Assembly: GCA_977017645.1 (NCBI GenBank) | Contig: OZ360221.1 | Span: 112,654,001 to 112,718,000, forward strand | Source of the DNA: Torpedo marmorata | Taxonomy: Eukaryota | DNA length: 64,000 nt | Direction: 5' to 3' | Part shown: piece after piece, positions 32,918 through 46,835 of the stretch | How positions within the stretch are numbered: the first letter of the stretch is position 1 | Layout of the letters: each line of letters opens with the position of its first letter | The notes under the pieces: model-generated | Database searches by the model: none | Told to the model about the DNA's origin: nothing | The model's input: the letters and a program-made list of their open reading frames with translations, nothing else | Position numbers and translations under genes: made by a program

Positions 32918-35900
32918 TGATATGCCTATCAATAACCGACACGAGTCTAGAAGTGCAGGAATTAACAAGGCTTTTATTAACAGAATCAAAGCCAGGGCTG
33001 ACTATGCCTTGACCTGATGATCCCTGCTGGATTGTCCCGGAACTGGGGGAGGAGTTGCTGGCTCAAGGCCTTTATTCCAGGTAAAGGGGGAGGGGTCACC
33101 GGGACAGACAGACAGGTCATGGTCATACCTGCCTCAGGCCATAATACATACAAAGTGGTTTACCACATTCACCCCTTCTTTTAGAACAAGTCCGACGGTG
33201 GGGTGAAGTGGAAAACTGTAAAAAGAGAAGAGAAAAAAAAAATACAAAATACATAGATAATATACAGTTTTTACAGGTCGAGTTTCGCCGGCGGCCGGAT
33301 TTGCCGCCGTGACCTCCGTAGCGCCAGCGGGGATGGTAGTGGTTGTGGAATGAGGGTACGAGTGAAAATACGTGATGCCCGCGGGGATGATTGTGGCTGC
33401 GGGATGGGAGTAGGTACAGTAGGGTGGATCTGGGGCTGGTTCGCCTCCTGCCTGGCTAGTGGCCAGTACAGCTGTGACGGGGACAACGTCGTGCTGGGAG
33501 GCGGATGGTCCGGAGGGGGCAGCTGCGACCCGGCGTTCCCGCTGTCGGGGACCTCTTCAGACGCTCCTGCAGGCGCCAGGTCCCGTATTGACACCGTGTC
33601 TTCCCGCCCATCGGGGAGAACCACGAATGCGTACTGCGGGTTTGCATGGATCAGCTGCACCCTCTCGACTAAGGGCTCGTACTTGCTACTCCGAAGATGT
33701 TTGCGGAGTAGCACCGGCCCCGGGGACGTCAGCCAGGCAGGGAGTGTAGTCCCGGTGGTCGATTTTCTGGGGAAGGAAAAGATACGTTCGTGAGGGGTAG
33801 TGTTAGTGGCGGTACATAAGAGGGATCGTATAGAGTGGAGGGCGTCCGGGAGAACCTCCTGCCAGCGAGCCACTGGCCACCCTTTTGCTTTGAGGGCCAG
33901 TAGTGTCGCTGTCCATACTGTGGCGTTCTCCCTCTCCACTTGTCCGTTCCCCCGTGGGTTGTACGCCGTGGTCCTGCTGGTAGCGATGCCTCGGGTCTGC
34001 AAGTGCTGTCGCAGCTCCCCGCTCATGAACGCGGACCCCCGGTCGCTGTGGACATAGCTGGGGAACCCGAACACGGTGAAAACCTGGTGGAGAGCCTTGA
34101 TAGCCGCCGCCGCCGAGGTATCTGGGCAGGGGATGGCAAAGGGGAACCGCGAGTACTCATCAATGATGTTGAGGAAGTACACATTGCGGTTCGTGGAGGG
34201 GAGGGGGCCCTTGAAGTCTATACTGAGACGTTCGAACGGGCGGGTGGCTTTGACCAGCTGTGCTCTGTCGGGGCGGTAGTACTGCGGTTTGCATTCCGCA
34301 CAGACTCGGCAGCTGCTGGTCATGGTCTTGACCTCATCCAGGGAGAAAGGCAGGTTCCGTGCTTTAATAAAGTGTAACAGCCTGGTGACTCCTGGGTGGC
34401 AGAGGTCATTATGTAGGGCGTATAACCGGTCGATCTGCGCGCTGGCGCACGATCCCTGGGATAGAGCGTCAGGGGGCTCGTTGAGCTTCCCGGGCCGGTA
34501 AAGGATGTTGTAATTGTAGGTGGAGAGTTCTATTCTCCACCTCATGATTTTATCATTTTTAATTTTACCCCGCTGCTGGCTGTTAAACATGAAAGCGACG
34601 GAGCGCTGGTCCGTCAGCAGGGTAAAATGTTTTCCGGCGAGATAGTGCCTCCAGTGCCGGACAGCCTCGACAATGGCCTGGGCCTCTTTCTCTACCGCGG
34701 AGTGCCGAATTTCGGGGCCTTGAAGGGTGCGGGAGAAAAACGCTACCGGTCTTCCCGCCTGGTTGAGGGTAGCAGCCAGTGCGAAGTCCGAGGCGTCACT
34801 CTCTACCTGAAAAGGTTCCGACTCGTCCACCGCGTGCATCGCTGCTCGGGCGATGTCCCCTTTTATGAGGTCGAAAGCCTCACGTGCCTCCGCTGCCAGG
34901 GGAAACTTGGTGGATTTGACGAGGGGTCGGGCTTTGTCCGAGTAATTTGGGACCCACTGTGCATAATAGGAGAAAAACCCGAGGCATCGTTTAAGTGCTT
35001 TGGGGGTAACGGGGATCGGAAGTTCCAACAGGGGGCGCATGCGGTCGGGGTCGGGTCCAATCACCCCGTTTTCCACGACGCACCCCAGGATAGCGAGTCG
35101 GGTAGTCCCGAACACGCATTTCTCCTTGTTATATGTGAGGTTCAGCGTCTCGGCCGCCTGTAAGAACTTCCGAAGGTTCCTGTCGTGATCCTGGCGATCA
35201 TGACCACAGATGGTGATGTCGTCCAGGTACGGGAAGGTGGCAGTGAGCTTGAACTGATCAATGATCCTGTCCATCTCCCTTTGGAACACGGATACCTCAT
35301 TTGTTACCCCGAAGGGGACGCGCAGAAAATGGAATAATCTGCCGTCCGCCTCGAAAGCGGTGTATACTCGGTCCTCCCGGCGGATTGGGAGCTGGTGGTA
35401 AGCCGACTTAAGGTCGATGGTGGAGAAGACTTTGTATTGAGCAATCTGGTTGACCATGTCCGCGATCTTTGGCAGCGGATAGGCGTCCAGTTGCGTGAAC
35501 CGGTTGATGGTCTGGCTATAGTCCACCACCATCCGGCTCTTAGCCCCGTTCTTCACCACGACTACCTGTGCTCTCCAGGGGCTGTTACTGGGTGCAATGA
35601 TCCCTTCCCCCAGCAAACGCTGCACCTCCGCCTTAATGAATGCCCTGTCCCCTGCACTGTATCGCCTACTTTTAGTTGCGATGGGCTTACAGTCAGGGGT
35701 CAGGTTGGCGAAGAGTGGCGGGGGTTGGGTCTTTAGTGTGGAGAGACCACAGGTAGTCTGGGGCGTATTAATTAAATATTGGGGGTTAGTCACAACGATT
35801 GGGGGGTGGGGCCCATCATAGTGCATGGTGACGCTACGCAGGTGGCTTTGGAAGTCCAATCCCAGCAATACAGGAGCACACAAACGGGGCATGATTAACA

Positions 35901-37653
35901 ACGAAAACTCCCGATATTCCGTGCCCTGTACCACTATATTCGCCACACAACGCCCCCGGATGTCTGTTGTGTGCGTTCCAGACGCCATGGCCACCCTCTG
36001 GCTTACCGGTACAATGGTGAGGCCACAGCGCTGGGCAGTGTCTGGGTGTATAAAACTTTCTGTACTGCCTGTGTCGAACAGGCAGGTGGTCTTATGCCCC
36101 TCAACGAGAATGTCCATCATGGATCTGGACAGTTGATGGGGCGCGTTCTGGTCCAGCGTCACGGATGCCAGGGTCGAGACGAAGTCTTGATCTTGATCCG
36201 GTGGTAGCTCCCGTGGCTCGTACGTGTCGCTACGAGGGGGTGGAGCCGGGAGTGCTGGAAGTGCTGCGGTGAGATTATAAAATGGCCGCGCCGGAAATGT
36301 AGAGATCGGATGTGTGGACCAAGATGGCCGCCTCCAGTCCTCACACGAGGTCTCCTCAGGAAGTGACGTCGGGTAAGATGGCCGCCCCCTCCCGTCGCAC
36401 GTGGCGCTGCTGGAAAACTGAAGTGCTGCGTGCTGTGATGGCTGCCTCCAGACCTCACACGAGGTCTCCGCCGGAAGTGGAGTCGAGTAAGATGGCCGCC
36501 CCCGTACCTCGCACGCGGCGCTGCTCGGACCCGTGCGCGACTTGGAGCGGCAGACCTTAGCATAGTGGCCTTTCTTGCCACAGCTAGAACAAGTCGCGTC
36601 TCGGGCCGGGCAGCGCTTGCGCGGGTGCTTGTCGAGCCCGCAGAAGTAGCACTTCTCGGGCTCCCGGGAGATAGCGGCAGCGGTTAACTCACGGGTAGCG
36701 GCGGGCTCTCGGGCAGCGGCGGCAGCGGCCAACTCACGGATAGCGTCGGCGGCGGCGAGCGGGTCCCGGTAGACGGCAGCAGCCGTCGCGTTGCTTGTAG
36801 GGCTGACGGTTGGGGCGATCCAAGAAGCAGGCTGCGCCTGCATAGCGTCAGCGTTCTTTAGGGCTGAGTCCAGATTCAGGATGTTCTGGACAGTCGATTT
36901 CAGGGTCAGGTCGGCGTGTTCCAGCAATCGCTGGCGGATGTAGCCCGACCTGATCCCTTTTATGATAGTGTCCCTTGCCAGAATCTCGGAGTGTTGCTCA
37001 GCCGTCAGGGCTCGACAGTCACACGCTCGTACCAGGAGCATCACGTCCTGGATATATTCAGAGACCGACTCTCCGGGTCGCTGGTACCACTGCGATATCC
37101 GGTGCCTTGCGAAAATCTCGTTCGCAGGCGTCATGTACAGCGTTCGGAGGGCGAGCAAGGCATCATCAAAAGTCCCACAGTCTCTGACGGCGCCATACAC
37201 TCGCTTGCTTACCCTGGACATGAGGATATCGAGTTTCTGCTCGTCGGTAGCCGCTCCGGACGACCTCACGTAGGCTGTGAAGCAGCGTTGCCACAGTTCG
37301 AAATCGCTTGCAGCGTCTTGGGCCAGGGGGTCGATGTCTAGCTTGTCTGGCTTTAACAAATTCTCCATTGATTCGTATTTTTTGTTGAAACTGTTAATAA
37401 AATTGATATGCCTATCAATAACTGACACGAGTCTAGAAGTGCAGGAATTAACAAGGCTTTTATTAACAGAATCAAAGCCAGGGCTGACTATACCTTGACC
37501 TGATGATCCCTGCTGGATTGTCCCGGAACTGGGGGAGGAGTTGCTGGCTCAAGGCCTTTATTCCAGGTAAAGGGGGAGGGGTCACCGGGACAGACAGACA
37601 GGTCATGGTCATACCTGCCTCAGGCCATAATACATACAAAGTGGTTTACCACA
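32918..37653 (-). mobile_element. Full-length young Ty3/Gypsy LTR retrotransposon
   Basis: 250-bp LTRs at 32918-33167 and 37404-37653 (2 differences seen by eye); TG...CA termini; 5-bp TSD ACCAC; polypurine tract next to the 3' LTR (33168-33182); single long ORF. Confidence 0.97.
33271..37368 (-). CDS. Gypsy Gag-Pol polyprotein in a single frame (Gag, 2 zinc knuckles, PR, RT, RNase H, IN)
   Basis: CYFCGLDKHPRKRC and CSSCGKKGHYAKVC; LFDTGS; YLDD; SDAS; H..CHPG...CRVC; SIDFKGP, HSDRG, GQVER. First ATG downstream of the LTR is at 37368. Confidence 0.93.
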   Translation of the reverse strand: MENLLKPDKLDIDPLAQDAASDFELWQRCFTAYVRSSGAATDEQKLDILMSRVSKRVYGAVRDCGTFDDALLALRTLYMTPANEIFARHRISQWYQRPGESVSEYIQDVMLLVRACDCRALTAEQHSEILARDTIIKGIRSGYIRQRLLEHADLTLKSTVQNILNLDSALKNADAMQAQPASWIAPTVSPTSNATAAAVYRDPLAAADAIRELAAAAAAREPAATRELTAAAISREPEKCYFCGLDKHPRKRCPARDATCSSCGKKGHYAKVCRSKSRTGPSSAACEVRGRPSYSTPLPAETSCEVWRQPSQHAALQFSSSATCDGRGRPSYPTSLPEETSCEDWRRPSWSTHPISTFPARPFYNLTAALPALPAPPPRSDTYEPRELPPDQDQDFVSTLASVTLDQNAPHQLSRSMMDILVEGHKTTCLFDTGSTESFIHPDTAQRCGLTIVPVSQRVAMASGTHTTDIRGRCVANIVVQGTEYREFSLLIMPRLCAPVLLGLDFQSHLRSVTMHYDGPHPPIVVTNPQYLINTPQTTCGLSTLKTQPPPLFANLTPDCKPIATKSRRYSAGDRAFIKAEVQRLLGEGIIAPSNSPWRAQVVVVKNGAKSRMVVDYSQTINRFTQLDAYPLPKIADMVNQIAQYKVFSTIDLKSAYHQLPIRREDRVYTAFEADGRLFHFLRVPFGVTNEVSVFQREMDRIIDQFKLTATFPYLDDITICGHDRQDHDRNLRKFLQAAETLNLTYNKEKCVFGTTRLAILGCVVENGVIGPDPDRMRPLLELPIPVTPKALKRCLGFFSYYAQWVPNYSDKARPLVKSTKFPLAAEAREAFDLIKGDIARAAMHAVDESEPFQVESDASDFALAATLNQAGRPVAFFSRTLQGPEIRHSAVEKEAQAIVEAVRHWRHYLAGKHFTLLTDQRSVAFMFNSQQRGKIKNDKIMRWRIELSTYNYNILYRPGKLNEPPDALSQGSCASAQIDRLYALHNDLCHPGVTRLLHFIKARNLPFSLDEVKTMTSSCRVCAECKPQYYRPDRAQLVKATRPFERLSIDFKGPLPSTNRNVYFLNIIDEYSRFPFAIPCPDTSAAAAIKALHQVFTVFGFPSYVHSDRGSAFMSGELRQHLQTRGIATSRTTAYNPRGNGQVERENATVWTATLLALKAKGWPVARWQEVLPDALHSIRSLLCTATNTTPHERIFSFPRKSTTGTTLPAWLTSPGPVLLRKHLRSSKYEPLVERVQLIHANPQYAFVVLPDGREDTVSIRDLAPAGASEEVPDSGNAGSQLPPPDHPPPSTTLSPSQLYWPLARQEANQPQIHPTVPTPIPQPQSSPRASRIFTRTLIPQPLPSPLALRRSRRQIRPPAKLDL

Positions 37654-39322
37654 ACCACCTCACTAAAGCTCCTGTCTATGATGCTCTCAGCATCTTGGAT
37701 ATTCCTGAGTAAGTTCAAATGCATCTTCAGCTGCTTCCTGCAGGTAAAGGGTTCATGTTCTGCAAGAGAAGATGACAACTGCTCTGACTGCCACCTCTAA
37801 AACCACTATGATTACAGAAGAAAGTATAAGAACATGCTCTATATTCCCACTATGCAGACTCCACTTTGAACCTTCTCCAAAATTCAGCACATGCACAATA
37901 AACACATCCACTCTCACAATGGCTGCTGCAAAATAATTGGTCTGCTATATACGTAAATTTATAAGGCAATATGGCTTTGCTTTGAAGCACATGTGGCAAG
38001 GTATCAAAACAATAACAGACCACAAGAGAACCTTGTGAGTTAATGACAATGACACCTCCCTTCCAGACGCACTGAACAACGTCTACATATGGTTTGACGA
38101 GAAGAACAGGCTGACACCAAAGAAAGCTCCTTCTCCCCTTGAAGAGCAGGCCGCTTGTATAGCTGGTGCTGAGCTGAGGAGGATCCTATCCAGGATGAAT
38201 CCATAAAAGGTAGTGGGACCAGACAATGTACCCAGCCGGGTACTGAAGAACTGTGCTGACCAACTGACAGCGGTCCTTACAGAGATCTTTAACACATCCT
38301 TGCAGCAGTCCATCGTCCCTGTATGTTTCAAGGCAGCCACCATCATCCCAGTACCAAGGAGGGTGACAGTAACAGGCCACAATGACTATCGCCCAGTGGC
38401 ACTAACCAGATTTCAGATTTCAGATTTATTGTCAGAGTACATATATGACATCACATACAACCCTGAGATTCTTTTTCCTGCGGGCAAGGCAGAATTACCA
38501 CTTATTCGTAGTGCAAAAAAACTGTACACAGCGTATACATGTAAACAAATAAAGAAATGTAAACAGATAACAAATGTAAACAAACTGACTGTGCAATATA
38601 GAGAGAATTTAAAAAATCAATAAAGTGCATAAGTAAAACTCCTTAAATGAGGCCCTGATTGAGTTTGTTGTTGAGGAGTCTGATGGTGGAGGGGTTGCAG
38701 CTGTTCCTGAACCTGGTGGTGCGAGTCTTATGGCACATATACAGGTACCTCTTTACTGATGGCAGCTGTGAGAACAGAGCGTGTGCTGGGTGGTGTGGAT
38801 CCTTGATGATTGCTGCTGTTCTCCGGCAGTGGCGTTCCCTGTAGATGTTCTCGACAGTGGAGAGGGTTTTGCCTGTGATGTCCTGGACTGTGTCCACTAC
38901 CTTTTAGAGAGCTTTACGCTCAGGGGTATTGGTGTCCCCATACCAGACCATGATGCAACCGGTCAGCACACTTTCCACCACACATCTGTAGAAATTTGCC
39001 ATGGTTTCTGATGTTATACCAAACCTCCGCAAACTCCTGAGGAAGTAGAGGCACTGATGTGCTTTCTTCACGATGCCGTTAGTGTGTTGGGTCCAGGAAA
39101 GATCCTCCGAGATAGTGACTCCCAAGAACTTAAATTTGCTCACCCTCTCCACCTCTGATCCCCCAATGATCACTGGATTGTATACCTCTGGCTTTCCCTT
39201 CCTGAAGTCAACAATCAGCTCCTTAGTTTTGGTAACATTGAGTGCAAGGTTGTTGTTGGTGCACGATTTGGCCAAGTTTTCAATCTCCCTCCTTGTATGC
39301 TAACTCATCACCTTTCTTTATA

Positions 39323-40556: not shown

Positions 40557-43119
40557 CCACCGTAGATGTGTTGCTACGATAGGCGAACTGAAACGTATTC
40601 ATGTCACCGCTCAGGCAGGAGCTGATATGCTTCAACACCAGCCTTTCAAAACACTTCATCACTGTTAATGTAAGTGCTACTGGTCGATAGTCATTAAGGC
40701 AGGTTACTACACTCTTCTTGGGCACCAGTATGATTGATGCCTGTTTGAAACAGGTGGGTGCCACGCCCTGCTGGAGTGAGATATTGAAGATATCCGTGAA
40801 TACATTGGTAAGTTGGTCAGCACAGATTTTTAATGCTTGGCCAGGTATTCCGTCCGGGCCGGATGCTTTCCTCGGATTCACTCTCCTGAAGGCAGCAAAC
40901 ACGTCCTCCTCAGATACAGACAGGATGGGATCATCAGGGGACGTGCAGATGCGGAGGGGTTACTTCGCAGTTACTGTCGTCAAATCGGGTGTAGAAAGCA
41001 TTGACTTCCTCTGGGAGCGAAGCTTTGCCATCTGCTACTTCACCGGATTTGGTTTTGTAGCAGGTTATGTAATTTAGGCCCTGCCACAGCTGTCCGGTGT
41101 CCCTTGGTGTTTCCATTTTCATCCGGAATCTCCACTTCACCTGGGAGATAGCTATTTGCAGGTCATACCTGCTCCTTCTGTACTGATCTGGATCTCCGGA
41201 CTTAAATGCCTGTGATCTAGCTCTCAGCAGGTTATGGATTTCATTGTTCATCCAGGGCTCTGGTTGGGGAAAACCCTGAATGATTTGGCGGGGACACACT
41301 CATCCACAGCTGTTTTTATAAAGTCTGTGACAGCCCTGGTGGCATCGTTCAGATTTTCAGCTGAGTCCTTGAACACCGCCCAATCTGCTGACTCGAGGAA
41401 GTTCTGTAACCATTCTTCAGCCTCCTGTGACCACCTTCTAGCTGTCCTGATCTCTGGAGCCTCTCTTTTTAGGCTCTATCTGTATGAAGGCAGAAGGACC
41501 ACAGCCAGGTGATCCGACTTGCCAAAGTGTGGTCTCGGGAAAGAACGGTAGGCCTTCCTTATCTTGGTGTAGCAGTGATCGAGTGTGCTGGGTCCTCTGG
41601 TACAGCAGGTTACATGCTGGTGATAGTTGGGTAGGGTTTTCTTGACACAGGCCTGGTTAAAGTCGTCGACTAAGATTTGTAGTACGTCGGGCCTGGCCGT
41701 CTCTTGTTTACTAACCACATCATGCAGCTCCGCAAGTGCCTGTTTGTAATCGGCATCGGGAGGGATATAAACTCCGGTAAGAATCACTGATGGGAACTCT
41801 CGGGGTAGATAGAAGGGTCTGCATTTAATTGAGATTTTCTCTAAGGCAGTAGAGCAGGAGGTCGACATAACTCCAATGTCCGTGTACCACCCAGTATTAA
41901 CGAAAAAGCACACACTGCCCCCTCTTCCTTTTCCAGAATCTGAGTTCAGATCCAGTCTATGAATGATGAAACCGTCTGGTCAGAACCTGCACCATTATGA
42001 AATGCTTTGAGCTTCTGGTAACGGAACATGTCAAAGCACACCTCCCAGAGACATTGGACCCATTTCAATTCACCTACAGACAGAAGCATTCACTGATGAT
42101 GCTATAGCCTTGTCCCTCCCTCCGTCCTGACCCACCTGGAGAAAGACACCTCAGATGCCAGTCTGCTGTTCATTGACTTCAGCTCGGCGTTTAATACAAT
42201 AATACCCGAGAGGCTGGAGGAGAAGCTGTCCTTGCTAGGACTCAACACACCTCTTTGTAACTGGATTCTGCACTTCCTAATGGAAAGACAGCAGTCTGCC
42301 TGGGTTGGCAGTAGAACGTTCAGCACCATTACGCTGAGCACTGGCAAATCTCACTGCTCAGTCCGCTCCTGTGCATGCAACTGACCCACGTCTGCAAAGG
42401 CAGATACATTTCCAACAGAGTCATCAACTTTTCTGATGGCACAACAGTAGTTGGCCTCATCAGCAACAACGATGAACTCATGAACTGGTGCGAGAATAAT
42501 TACCTGCGTCTCAAAGTGGATAGGACAAAGGAGATGATTGTGGACTTCAGGAGGACCAGGAACACCCACCCTCCACTACACATTAATAGCTCGGTAGTGG
42601 AGAGAGTGGAGACCACCAAGTTCCTTGGAGCCCACTTAAGAAGTGACCTATCCTGGACTCAAAACATCTCCTCAGTTGTCAGGAAGGCCCAACAGTAACT
42701 GCGCTTCCTTAGAAGGGTGAGGCGGGCAAGGCCTCCAGCCACCATTCTGTTCTACAGGAACTCTATCGAGAGCGTCCTGGCCGGCTGTATCACAGTGTAG
42801 TACAGTTGCTGTAGAGCTTCAGATCGGAGGTCAATCCACAGGACCATAATCACTGGGGTCACCATCCCGCCCCCCACCTCCCCCCCCAATCCCCCCTCCC
42901 CCCATCAATGGGATTTACCGGCATCATTGTTGTGTGGGAAGGGAAAGGTTCAGTGGGTTCAAAGAATAGTGGGTCTGGACACAGGCTGAATGCAGAAACA
43001 ATATTTATTGTAACACACATAAGTAAGGGGATCGCAACATGGACAACATACGCAAGTATTCTCAATCACACAACACAGTGCAACCAGTCACATCGCACTT
43101 ACTTCCGATACACACACGA

Positions 43120-43306
43120 CTGGTCAGTACTTGGAGAGGAGACCGCCTAGGAACACCAGGTGCTGTAGGTTTCTGTGAGGGGCGCTGGACAAAGTAGCGA
43201 CTCTCTGTCTGCCTTACAGTAGACAAAAATTAAAGAATTTCATGTATGTTACATTCTAAATGTAATATTATGTGACAATAATGGAACCTTTACCTTTACC
43301 TTTACC
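43120..43306 (+). mobile_element. 5'-truncated 5S-rRNA-derived SINE (SINE3-like)
   Basis: ctggtcagtacttggagaggagaccgcctaggaacaccaggtgctgtaggttt matches the 3' ~50 nt of vertebrate 5S rRNA; followed by a LINE-like tail and (tttacc)n. Confidence 0.82.
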
Positions 43307-43482
43307 AGTAACAGTTTACACTCTTACAAGCACAGTACAATCTGGTCACATCAGACTTAATACTATGGATACTAGCAACTGTTTATACAGGCTTATCACA
43401 ACTAAGGATTACAACGCGCTACCCGCCGTTCCTTGTCTAACGTGGGCACAGCTCAGATGCTATCTACAACTACAACAGTATA

Positions 43483-43856
43483 CAGGTGGTCCCCGACATA
43501 CGTCCGAGTTCCGTTCTGACCAATAGGTTGGATCTCGAAATGGACGTTAGTCGGACATATGTTACTCCGGGCCTGTGCTCACCTCCCCCACCTCGGACAC
43601 CGGGTCTGCCACCGCCTTCGTGTCCCGAAAATAAAACACATTCGGCGGCAGCGGTGTCTCAGCGCCCTCCCGGCCCGTGGCCGCTGCCATGTTGGTCCGT
43701 CAAAATAAACAGCCCCTGGATCCCCGGGACCTGACGCGTAATTTTTATATTTACATCTATTTTTTTCTTTATTTTTTAAAATTTATACAGTATTATTTTT
43801 CGGTCGTATGTATGGATGGTCATAAGTCGCCTAGGTCGTAATTAGGTGACCACCTG
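43483..43856. mobile_element. Tigger/pogo-like MITE
   Basis: TIRs CAGGTGGTC.CC / GGTGACCACCTG with TA TSD at 43481-43482 and 43857-43858. Confidence 0.85.
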
Positions 43857-44309
43857 TACAACAGCCCCGATCCCTCTGTAGTGCACATCTTACAAACGAC
43901 TCCTCCAGCATTCTCCACAGCAGGGTTCATCTCAGAGCTGAAGAGCAAAAGAGGAAGAGTTACTGCACATGGTGGAATTTGTAGTGCAGTAAGCTGGAGG
44001 GTCCGGCCCAGGTAATCACCAGGTGATTAAAGGGGCTAATGGTCAGGTGTGCACTAATGGGTGGGCAGAGTCCAACCTTGATTGGCAGGTGATGCGACCT
44101 CTGACTAGGTTCCAGGCGGAGAGATCACGTGACCCTCCACAATCCACACTCCCACCAGGTTCCAGACATAGAGGTCACATGACCATCCACAATCCACACT
44201 ACATTCAACCCCTCCAAAGTCACACCACTCGCCAATCATTAAAAAAACAAGTAAAAACATTATTACAAAAAATAAATGAATACATTGTTACATAAGGTAA
44301 ATACATTGT

Positions 44310-45288
44310 TACAGTACAAGTGCCTGGTGAATAAACAGATAGACACAACAGAAGAGTGAAGGTATTGTTTCAGAAAATGACAACCGCTTACCAACTCCCC
44401 ACAGACCAAAAGGGCCCTTGTTCTCCCCATGGAGTGTCGTGCTGCAGGATCTGGCCTTCTATCTGTTTGTTTTTTTTGTCAGTCACTGACTCTCATATGT
44501 GGTCTTGCTGATTTGCCAGGGACGTTTGTGCACCACGTCTCACTGACAACAGCACCGGTACCACCTTCGTCTGTGAGCAGGTAGTGCAAGGTCATTCGGC
44601 TTTCCCTTCATCCAAAGTACCACAGCCCTTTCTTTGGCCAGCATTTTCACTGTGGCTATTCATCCAGGTGCTCCCCCATTGTTTGGAGGCACACATCCCA
44701 GATGGCTGCCGCTGTGCTGTCCCGTGGGAAGCCAGGGGTCGGCCCGGCAGACACGCATCCAGGGCATAATGATATTCTTGTAGGAGTACCCCCGTTAGCT
44801 GGGCTGTGGACTGTCAACCACCTCGTGCCAGGATGGCGTTCCTGGTCACATTCCCACTGTTCGCTTGGACCACATTGCCAAGGCGTGCTCCCTTTGTGCA
44901 CCCACTGGGAGAGTCAGGATTGTTTGTGTGCCGAATTGTATGGAGGGGAAAAATAAACCAGTTCCTGACGCACCCACCCCATCAAGGATTATTGGAAGTG
45001 AGGTGGTTAAGTGGTGAGGGGAGTCGAAGAACACCGTCATTACCGAAACATTTTGATTGAAGAGTCCATACAAGCAGCGCCTGTAGCTGTCGTCAAGTGG
45101 GGTCGGCATAGGTGGAAATCCTCAGCTGCGTGTGCCGGTGCAGTAATGCAGGTGCCGCAGTCTGGTGAGGTGGTGCTTCGTGCATATTCGTAGGCTTCCA
45201 CAGTGCCGATCAGCGTAGGCTGGAAGAGGAGCAGCTTGAAGGGTAGGCTTCTTCTGTTGGGTGGGGGGTTCTGGGAGAACTCACTCAC
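44310..45288 (-). pseudogene. Decayed, internally deleted gamma-type env
   Basis: Hydrophobic leader LPFKLLLFQPTLIGTVEA; CXXC (DCGTC, 45148-45159); ISD/CX6CC-like ESRMTLHYLLTDEGGTGAVVSETWCTNVP (44518-44604); terminal hydrophobic stretch. Confidence 0.7.
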
Positions 45289-46835
45289 TTCTGGTGAGTT
45301 GGTTAGTGTGGCAACATGAAAGGTTCGATTCGCCCGGTATCACGACCCATCGCGTTTCGCCTGGACCAAGCGCAATGATCTTTTTTTCAGCGGACCCTGT
45401 GGCTGCTGCATCCACACTCTATCAGACTCCTCGGGGTCTTGCATGTCGATTTCATCAGTTTTGGGAGCATCGGAGGATGCCAGGTGGCGTAAGAGTGGGG
45501 AACTCCCCTGCCCAATCTAACTGGTCTACTGCCTGCTGGAGCACACGAAGCCACCCCTGCAATGTATGTTCAGGCGTCAGTGTGTGAATTTTCTTTTTAA
45601 GTAGACTATTTCTACGTTCTATTAAGTAAGTTGCCTGTGGGTGGTCGGGGATGTGCAGCAGCCATGAGATACCATCCTCCACTGCTCAATTCTGTATTTT
45701 AGTCCCCATGAAGTGAGTTCCTTGGTCAGACTGTACGGTACTCCATAAATGGAAGAGAGGTATTGTAGCCCTTTAATGGTACTGTCCTGGTCGGCCCTCT
45801 GGCAGGGCACCACCACCAGAACACCCGAGTTTGTGTCGACCATTGTGAGCATGTATTGCTTTTTATTTTGGCATGGGAGCGGCCCAACGTAGTTGACCTG
45901 CCATACCTGGCCTGCTCCCGTGCCATGGCAAATGTGACCCGGTGGACGTGATGGCCAGCCCCGTGGTTTGGCCTGCTGGCAGGTGGAGCAATTGTCCACC
46001 GTGGTTCTAGCCTTGTCATGCATAAGTGCCACCACTACACCCTCTGCCCACCGTTGCGTGCCGTGGGAACCCAGATGCCAGCTCTTGAGGTACGCCCATG
46101 TTGCCAGTGCACTGACGTCAGTGTGATCGGGGTGCAGGGTGGCTGAGCACATTTGTGCTGCGCAGTCCATGGCAGCACTGTGCACAGCCTCCGCCGTATC
46201 TCCGTTGGTGTGCGCGTCCACATGGTGGACCATTGGCACTCTCTGCCCAGCCTGCTCCCAGATAAACCACCAGTGCTGCTGACCCCAGAGCGGGCGACTC
46301 TGAATCTTCCAGCCCGTGTCGTGCCACCGGGCCATCATACAGCCATGCCGTTGGCCACTGCCCAGGAGACAGTGTAAATACGGATAGGGTCTGTGGTTTC
46401 TTGGAGGGTGAGTGCTACTGCGGCCAGCTCAGCCAGCTGACTGGATCCTCCCATCCCCTCTTGTGTAAGTGTCTTACCCAGGCTACGGGGGAGGGGTGTA
46501 CTTGCAGGGACCTGTGGAGGGGGAGCGTCACTTTCGGGGAGGGACACGACCTGCTCGTGCAGTCAGCTCACCCCCTCAGAGCTGGCTTTGGCGCGGTCCA
46601 CGATGTACCACTTCCACTTTCCTATGGAGGACCTCTGGGCATGTCCCTCCTTGTGGGCAGCATCGGCGGACTTGACCCTGGCATGATGGGGAGGTGAGGT
46701 CGGAGTGTGATGGTCTCGGTAGCTGTTTGGTGCTCGGTGGCGAGGAGCACTAGGTAGCATACTAGCAGCTGATGCTCGAATGGGCTGTAGCAGGACGCGG
46801 CCTCAGGAAAGGTCTTGGTCCAGAAGATGTTTCCT

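Follow-up and report, generated by a model that had tools for sequence, protein, structure and literature searches.

A gamma-type env remnant, damaged in every family copy examined, behind a class III pol in Torpedo marmorata

Introduction

The combination of a class III pol with a gamma-type env is already published, for XtERV-S, for ERV-S and for one lineage of an anamniote survey. The class III provirus XtERV-S of Xenopus tropicalis is described as having a TM of gamma type and a serine primer site, and a glycosylation site at the heptad-repeat "stutter" marks the XtERV-S/spiny-rayed-fish subgroup of gamma-type TM (PMC8278194, available portion). Table 2 of the same paper gives the reverse transcriptase (RT) motif YIDD for ERV-L and XtERV-S and YVDD for foamy virus and MLV, and its Discussion presents ERV-S as class III with env sequences and no identifiable dUTPase. 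The anamniote env survey, in its accessible part, reports gamma-type env in six cartilaginous fishes and describes ERV-SA.a-Ppe, a lineage that joins a class III Pol to a gamma-type env (10.1101/2021.11.23.469661); "Ppe" probably stands for the sawfish Pristis pectinata. Class III-containing retroviruses occur across vertebrates, sharks included, according to the available text of two further papers (PMC6001957, PMC4977317). For IAP and others, a degraded env with subsequent spread inside the genome has been described (PMC10536682), and 295 open syncytin-like envs have been listed from 16 chondrichthyans, with none in placental sharks and no embryonic expression in the catshark (10.64898/2026.05.06.723177).

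Here, we analyze a window of Torpedo marmorata DNA, by which we mean the whole stretch of 64,000 nucleotides. A first-pass annotation of the window had reported a hidden, internally deleted gamma-type env behind an ERV-L-like pol, and had seen in intact family members candidates for syncytin-like co-option.

Results

The window copy and its parts

The element lies on the minus strand from 46829 to 42928. This pol-bearing copy is old, truncated at its 5' end and frameshifted, and it is without coding potential; none of its gag, protease, RT or 5' LTR lies within the window. Its parts are the following.

45281..46829, minus strand: pol fragment (RT connection/RNase H and integrase), frameshifted, 5'-truncated beside a stretch of N (Pfam, identity to relatives)
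45160..45249, minus strand: degenerate env signal-peptide region, without start codon (aligned to sister env codons 27-64)
45148..45159, minus strand: SU CXXC motif, retained (translation)
44699..45147, minus strand: SU remnant, frameshifted (tblastn block 45023-44916, 47% identity to sister env, 48 bits)
44605..44698, minus strand: region with two family-wide deletions, in which a short piece of the heptad start remains (alignment occupancy, anchor distances)
44506..44604, minus strand: degenerate immunosuppressive domain (ISD) and CX6CC-equivalent loop (39% identity to sister env over 33 aa)
44290..44501, minus strand: membrane-proximal block and broken membrane anchor/tail (45% identity to sister env over 42 aa)
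42928..44204, minus strand: 3' LTR, ~680 nt not counting the two younger insertions that interrupt it (identity to the 5' LTR of copy L047)

In the pol fragment, Pfam matched rve (E 3e-5) and Integrase_H2C2 (E 0.017) at 45622-46428. The fragment is 34-50% identical to a frog class III-type pol, P0010 (E 2e-42), and 82-86% identical in DNA to other copies. The 3' LTR matches the L047 5' LTR in three pieces at 85-89% identity, starts with TGT, ends with ACA and is immediately preceded by a purine-rich tract. One of its two insertions (43483-43856, 374 nt) has 9-nt terminal inverted repeats flanked by TA, and we take it to resemble a Tc1/mariner-type miniature element; the other (43112-43303) is 96% identical to a repeat copy in L059. 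Elsewhere in the window, 32918-37659 holds a young Gypsy-type LTR retrotransposon with 256-nt LTRs that are 98% identical and one open minus-strand gag-pol frame of 1,425 codons, in which protease, RT, RNase H and integrase were all matched.

The env remnant is real

Minus-strand 45249-44290 is a real remnant of a retroviral gamma-type env. It begins ~30 nt after the integrase stop of the element (45283-45281, minus strand, by translation). When the env of the sister copy L024 was compared with the window by tblastn, five collinear blocks were found, from the signal region to the membrane-proximal block, with E-values of 9e-13 for the SU part and 1e-8 for the TM part. The four best blocks score 48, 38, 34 and 31 bits, against 25 bits for the best of 200 shuffles. 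Envs of unrelated hosts also match the ISD block, namely, those of stickleback (P0004; pairwise E 2e-5, 42% identity) and stingray (P0001; 4e-12). Five collinear blocks far above the shuffles, together with these stickleback and stingray matches, establish that the remnant is real, as the first-pass annotation had claimed.

That annotation had also suggested an env HMM search, and here the window's own translations gave no direct match: among the seven from the env region, Pfam matched no env family at E≤1. The homology is therefore demonstrated via relatives, and it is through the sister env that the remnant is homologous to gamma-type TM and SU and counts as gamma-type by descent. One could take the silence of Pfam, and the fact that the quoted motifs sit in different frames, as signs of chance look-alikes in a stretch that never derived from env. 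We regard this as practically negligible, given the five collinear blocks far above shuffles and the correct position of the stretch between integrase and the purine tract and LTR.

All motifs quoted in the first-pass annotation were found by translation on the minus strand, spread over three different frames, and its ISD-like peptide lies at 44604-44518 (minus strand). The exact CX6CC spacing that it reported is not there: the window as read contains no CX6CC. Its hydrophobic peptide (44368-44312, minus strand) does fall on anchor-homologous DNA but was probably read out of frame. When the DNA was aligned pairwise, at near 60% identity and hence with an uncertain frame, the anchor in the sister's frame had two stops and a 7-base gap, and both stops recur in five of five readable copies.

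Three families in the genome

Family A consists of the window copy and 33 further loci (34 rows), collected as relatives by the stretch 44000-45400, which gave 32 further near-full-length matches of 79-85% identity among the best 40 of 4,344 candidates. The A copies come from the top of such ranked lists, so rare undeleted A copies could have been missed. A Pfam TLV_coat search of the genome returned 78 matches, and 19 of the 20 loci examined share pol, env or LTR DNA with the window element. Close relatives of L024 in this genome whose env is complete form family B, and family C is a third, likewise env-complete group at 49-63% protein identity.

The L024 env is an open frame of 412 codons from its Met (Pfam TLV_coat, E 1.7e-19), and its best relative of solved structure is syncytin-1 (E 1.9e-14). 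A short env is natural to the lineage, as the stickleback relative has 414 aa. Families B and C keep the furin site, the fusion peptide, the ISD and CX6CC, the last in 20 of 20 B rows, and with complete envs in both sister families the enveloped ancestor proposed for the element is supported. Family B, with 3,015 candidates from the SU query, seems at least as numerous as family A; hence, the loss of env did not obviously make A the larger family.

Several side observations concern these relatives. Family C (L081-L099) is the nearer to A in integrase and LTR, and some of its copies lie on small contigs with near-identical scores, which suggests segmental duplication. Codons 298-304 of the L024 env hold an N-glycosylation sequon in heptad repeat 1 that the fish relatives P0003 and P0004 share. 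Stingray gene models carrying automatic names after syncytin or PABLB env are 81-82% identical, and a gene model of the sawfish Pristis holds an env piece at 70% identity to the sister env. In two public models (P0001 and P0007), pieces of the lineage are fused to other sequence, a gag end with an env middle in stingray and an env TM piece before a TBX22-like gene in sawfish; these fusions are probably prediction artefacts.

Env lesions are common to family A

The env damage of the window copy is not private decay but is common to all copies examined. Neither the furin/fusion anchor nor that for the second part of heptad repeat 1 occurs in any of the 34 A rows, whereas 18 of 20 B rows have these anchors with scores of at least 66 bits. 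The distance from SU to ISD is 361-428 nt in the 33 measurable A rows and 509-600 nt in B, where 16 of 20 rows could be measured. At sister codons 256-288 and 311-328, fewer than 15% of the 34 A rows are occupied in the alignment, and smaller gaps occur elsewhere. Deletion 1 (~33 codons) comprises the furin site and fusion peptide, and deletion 2 (~18 codons) comprises most of heptad repeat 1; the env is indeed internally deleted, to the modest extent of ~60 codons. A second copy search started from SU sequence that lies upstream of both deletions, so as not to be biased toward deleted copies, and the furin anchor was absent in all 29 other rows that it gave (21 new loci and 8 repeats). All 40 scored matches of the junction stretch were of the short, deleted form.

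A start Met at the sister's position occurs in none of 32 readable A rows and the ISD aspartate in none of 34. The first CX6CC cysteine is likewise absent from all 34 rows, and the second and third are present in 3 and 28, respectively; the single CX6CC match among A rows is off-site and in another frame. The longest stop-free env stretch in the 34 rows is 91-193 codons, and stops precede the anchor. Of the features of a functional gamma-type env, family A retains the SU CXXC, whose cysteines are kept in 26 of 28 and 27 of 29 readable copies; the furin site and fusion peptide, the ISD with CX6CC, and an open frame with signal peptide and anchor are gone. The first-pass annotation had reached its LDYLL-like motif and cysteines through single-base reversions, and had named as evidence against itself the lack of an HMM match together with a family that does not restore them. 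Since the other A copies do not restore the motif or the cysteines, and no direct HMM match was obtained, this is the outcome within family A.

Class of the backbone

The RT site, outside the window, reads YIDD in the sister copy L053 and in the A copy L047. The integrase finger is HX4HX28CX2C, with the 28 spacing in L043 (family A) and in L053, L055 and L056 (family B); the window copy keeps the spacing and lacks the first His. No gag Cys-His box was found by Pfam in two gag frames (E≤0.1) or seen in translations, and the LTRs end in TGT...ACA. In Table 2 of PMC8278194, these states of finger, box and LTR ends are listed for ERV-L and XtERV-S and others for foamy virus and MLV. No dUTPase was found in the three frames before env; the frog protein P0010 gave a weak dUTPase match. 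The primer site, taken from other copies because the window copy has no 5' end, was read in 12 A and 3 B rows and agrees over 20 nt with the 3' end of a tRNA-Ser(CGA) gene of the host; a looser form of the host tRNA pattern search gave 10 matches, 4 of them called tRNA-Ser. Of the named relatives of the RT, the closest come from stingray (72%), frogs (52-57%) and birds (45-56%), and in a ranking of solved structures MLV and foamy RTs score about equally, which does not separate gamma from foamy. An open 836-codon YIDD frame beside a sister provirus (L088:6434-8941, minus strand) was rejected as an intact pol, being Penelope-like (RT and GIY-YIG).

A class III pol, a serine primer site, env sequences and no dUTPase occur together here, which is the ERV-S pattern and not that of ERV-L proper, with its dUTPase after integrase, leucine primer and no env. 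Judged by these motifs, the backbone is better described as class III, ERV-S-like rather than ERV-L proper. The "ERV-L-like pol" of the first-pass annotation was therefore correct as to class III and not as to ERV-L proper, and its pairing of a class III pol with a gamma-type env stands.

Comparison with described systems

The likeness to XtERV-S, as far as the available portion of PMC8278194 describes it, extends to a class III gag-pol with YIDD, HX4HX28CX2C and no Cys-His box; to LTRs of ~700 nt with TGT...ACA ends and a serine primer site; and to a short gamma-type env that starts at the pol stop and has an N-terminal CWIC, CX6CC and the heptad-repeat glycosylation site. XtERV-S differs in the dUTPase after its integrase, its Ser(AGA/TGA) primer and its intact genome, whereas the lineage here has no dUTPase, matches a host tRNA-Ser(CGA) and, in family A, carries an env that is dead family-wide. 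With ERV-S/HERV-S, compared by published description, it has in common class III, env sequences and no dUTPase; that group differs in its mammalian hosts. The name of the ERV-S/HERV-S family reflects a serine primer. ERV-SA.a-Ppe, known here by its description, may be the present lineage in a sawfish, although its authors, in the accessible text, call their class III group SnRV-related. With ERV-L and IAP, family A shares the loss of env function and, probably, intracellular amplification. ERV-L differs in having no env sequence, a dUTPase and a leucine primer, whereas here ~1 kb of env DNA is kept in both the pol-bearing and the pol-less form. A pol-less non-autonomous derivative has its parallel in the ERV-L/MaLR pair of mammals. 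Repeat libraries, subscription journals and survey supplements aside, our search found no paper that describes, for a ray, a class III family with a dead env and a derivative lacking pol; the survey supplements may hold the present families.

Spread, selection and a pol-less form

The env tree is a star, with A tips of 0.05-0.12 and a stem to B of 0.54; the integrase tree agrees with the star and places A nearer C. LTR-pair distances have a median of 0.125 in A (range, 0.081-0.172; 17 rows) and of 0.058 in B (6 rows); the B rows were those with the best Pfam scores, and B may therefore seem younger than it is. The A median leaves out two of 19 apparent LTR pairs (L048 and L070), which proved to be other repeats. 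Target duplications are 5 bp in three of four testable copies.

All dN/dS values were framed on a single B copy, contain the decay that followed insertion and derive from blastn blocks, which favor conserved parts; on this basis, A versus B gives 0.18 for gag, 0.19 for RT, 0.21 for RNase H-IN, 0.42 for env SU and 0.47 for TM, and gag-pol, at ~0.2, was under purifying selection. Over shared codons, SU stands at 0.42 in A versus 0.16 in the env-complete C (bootstrap 0.006), and A equals C in gag (0.17/0.17) and RNase H-IN (0.21/0.21); the TM block shows no difference (0.53 vs 0.48) over 25 codons only. Within B, env is under purifying selection (0.18 SU, 0.32 TM), as expected for spread by reinfection. 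At synonymous sites of SU, the A env is closer to B (0.66) than the C env is (1.26), though the A integrase groups with C; env exchange or alignment bias are possible reasons.

pol is present in 11 of the 34 A rows, absent in 20 and unclear in 3. The pol-less copies are a non-autonomous derivative: 19 of 20 share the gag-side breakpoint, and 16 of 20 show both ends of a 3.4-kb deletion. An ESM Atlas search with an A gag piece gave only gag-like leads below 0.9, including a cluster named after Fv1 at 0.86, which we do not count as evidence.

Discussion

The window holds the dead env of a multicopy ERV-S-like ERV that was probably amplified by retrotransposition in germ cells after env function had been lost. 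The starting point is a class III gag-pol with a serine primer site ahead of a short gamma-type env, the arrangement still complete in families B and C. In every A copy read, the env start codon, the furin site, the fusion peptide and the greater part of heptad repeat 1 are gone, as are the ISD aspartate, the first cysteine of CX6CC and, apparently, the frame of the anchor. The same damage in all examined copies makes it likely that the family spread within the genome after env had died. We hypothesize that the lesions became fixed in one master while gag-pol was still selected, so that new copies would have arisen without cell entry. A 3.4-kb deletion would then have produced the form that amplified as LTR, gag, env remnant and LTR, a step suggested by the shared breakpoints; the pol for this form was most likely borrowed from pol-bearing copies. 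The window copy is one old pol-bearing member, truncated at its 5' end, frameshifted and devoid of coding potential.

The main rival accepts the same dead env and lets family A spread by reinfection, its particles pseudotyped by an intact B or C env. Sequence alone cannot separate retrotransposition from such complementation by a sister env, and the means for it are in the genome: env-complete relatives with the common serine primer site, a B env that evolved under purifying selection (0.18 SU, 0.32 TM), and a C copy whose LTRs are as diverged as those of A (0.119). However, B looks younger than A (LTR median 0.058, n = 6, from rows picked by best score, versus 0.125, n = 17), the gag-pol of A itself stayed selected, and A forms a single star-like burst. 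We therefore consider pseudotyping rather unlikely, if the foremost of the alternatives. A slimmer chance is that the remnant was kept for a cis-acting RNA signal (export, packaging or a 3' splice region) that mobility would need. The 1-kb remnant is nearly whole (at least 93% of the reference stretch) in 32 of 34 rows, among them 19 of 20 pol-less copies, despite the 3.4 kb lost just upstream, and its synonymous distance to B (0.62-0.74) is below that of gag-pol (1.1-1.4). But retention is partly built in, as the rows were chosen by similarity to the remnant itself; two rows (L072 and L080) lack its 5' part; a single deletion event accounts for the shared structure without selection; and the low synonymous distance may come from env exchange or alignment bias. 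Retrotransposition of an env-dead family thus remains our preferred reading.

Could the locus or a family member serve the host as a syncytin-like or restriction gene? The sister families do contain complete gamma-type envs, one with an open frame of 412 codons, and the automatically named stingray models are 81-82% identical. The chondrichthyan syncytin-like candidates are also gamma-type envs of cartilaginous fishes, rays included, but they have open frames of at least 400 aa, a furin site and CX6CC, and those of the catshark are tied to an epsilon-like pol (10.64898/2026.05.06.723177). The window copy has none of the features by which these candidates were defined: it is multiply frameshifted, has no open env frame, and lacks the start codon, furin site and fusion peptide, so for this copy co-option is already refuted. 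No intact member was seen in family A. In the sister families, a full-length open env without stops was found once among the 150 matches listed, and the LTR distance of that copy gives a chance of staying open of ~0.02 to 0.3 per copy; one open survivor is thus no sign of selection. The same survey found placental sharks to be free of candidates and saw no expression in catshark embryos. Co-option anywhere in the family, the prospect raised by the first-pass annotation, is very improbable in our view.

In summary, the locus opens no new question and offers no syncytin candidate. A bolder reading, which we hold to be unlikely, is that one cartilaginous-fish genome independently replayed the path from ERV-S to ERV-L to MaLR, with the dead env kept as an RNA signal in both later stages; if true, its stages would run from class III families with an envelope, through an autonomous retrotransposon whose env is dead, to a passenger without pol. 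The coexistence of env-complete, env-dead and pol-less forms makes the families a tidy dataset on env loss and non-autonomy in class III.
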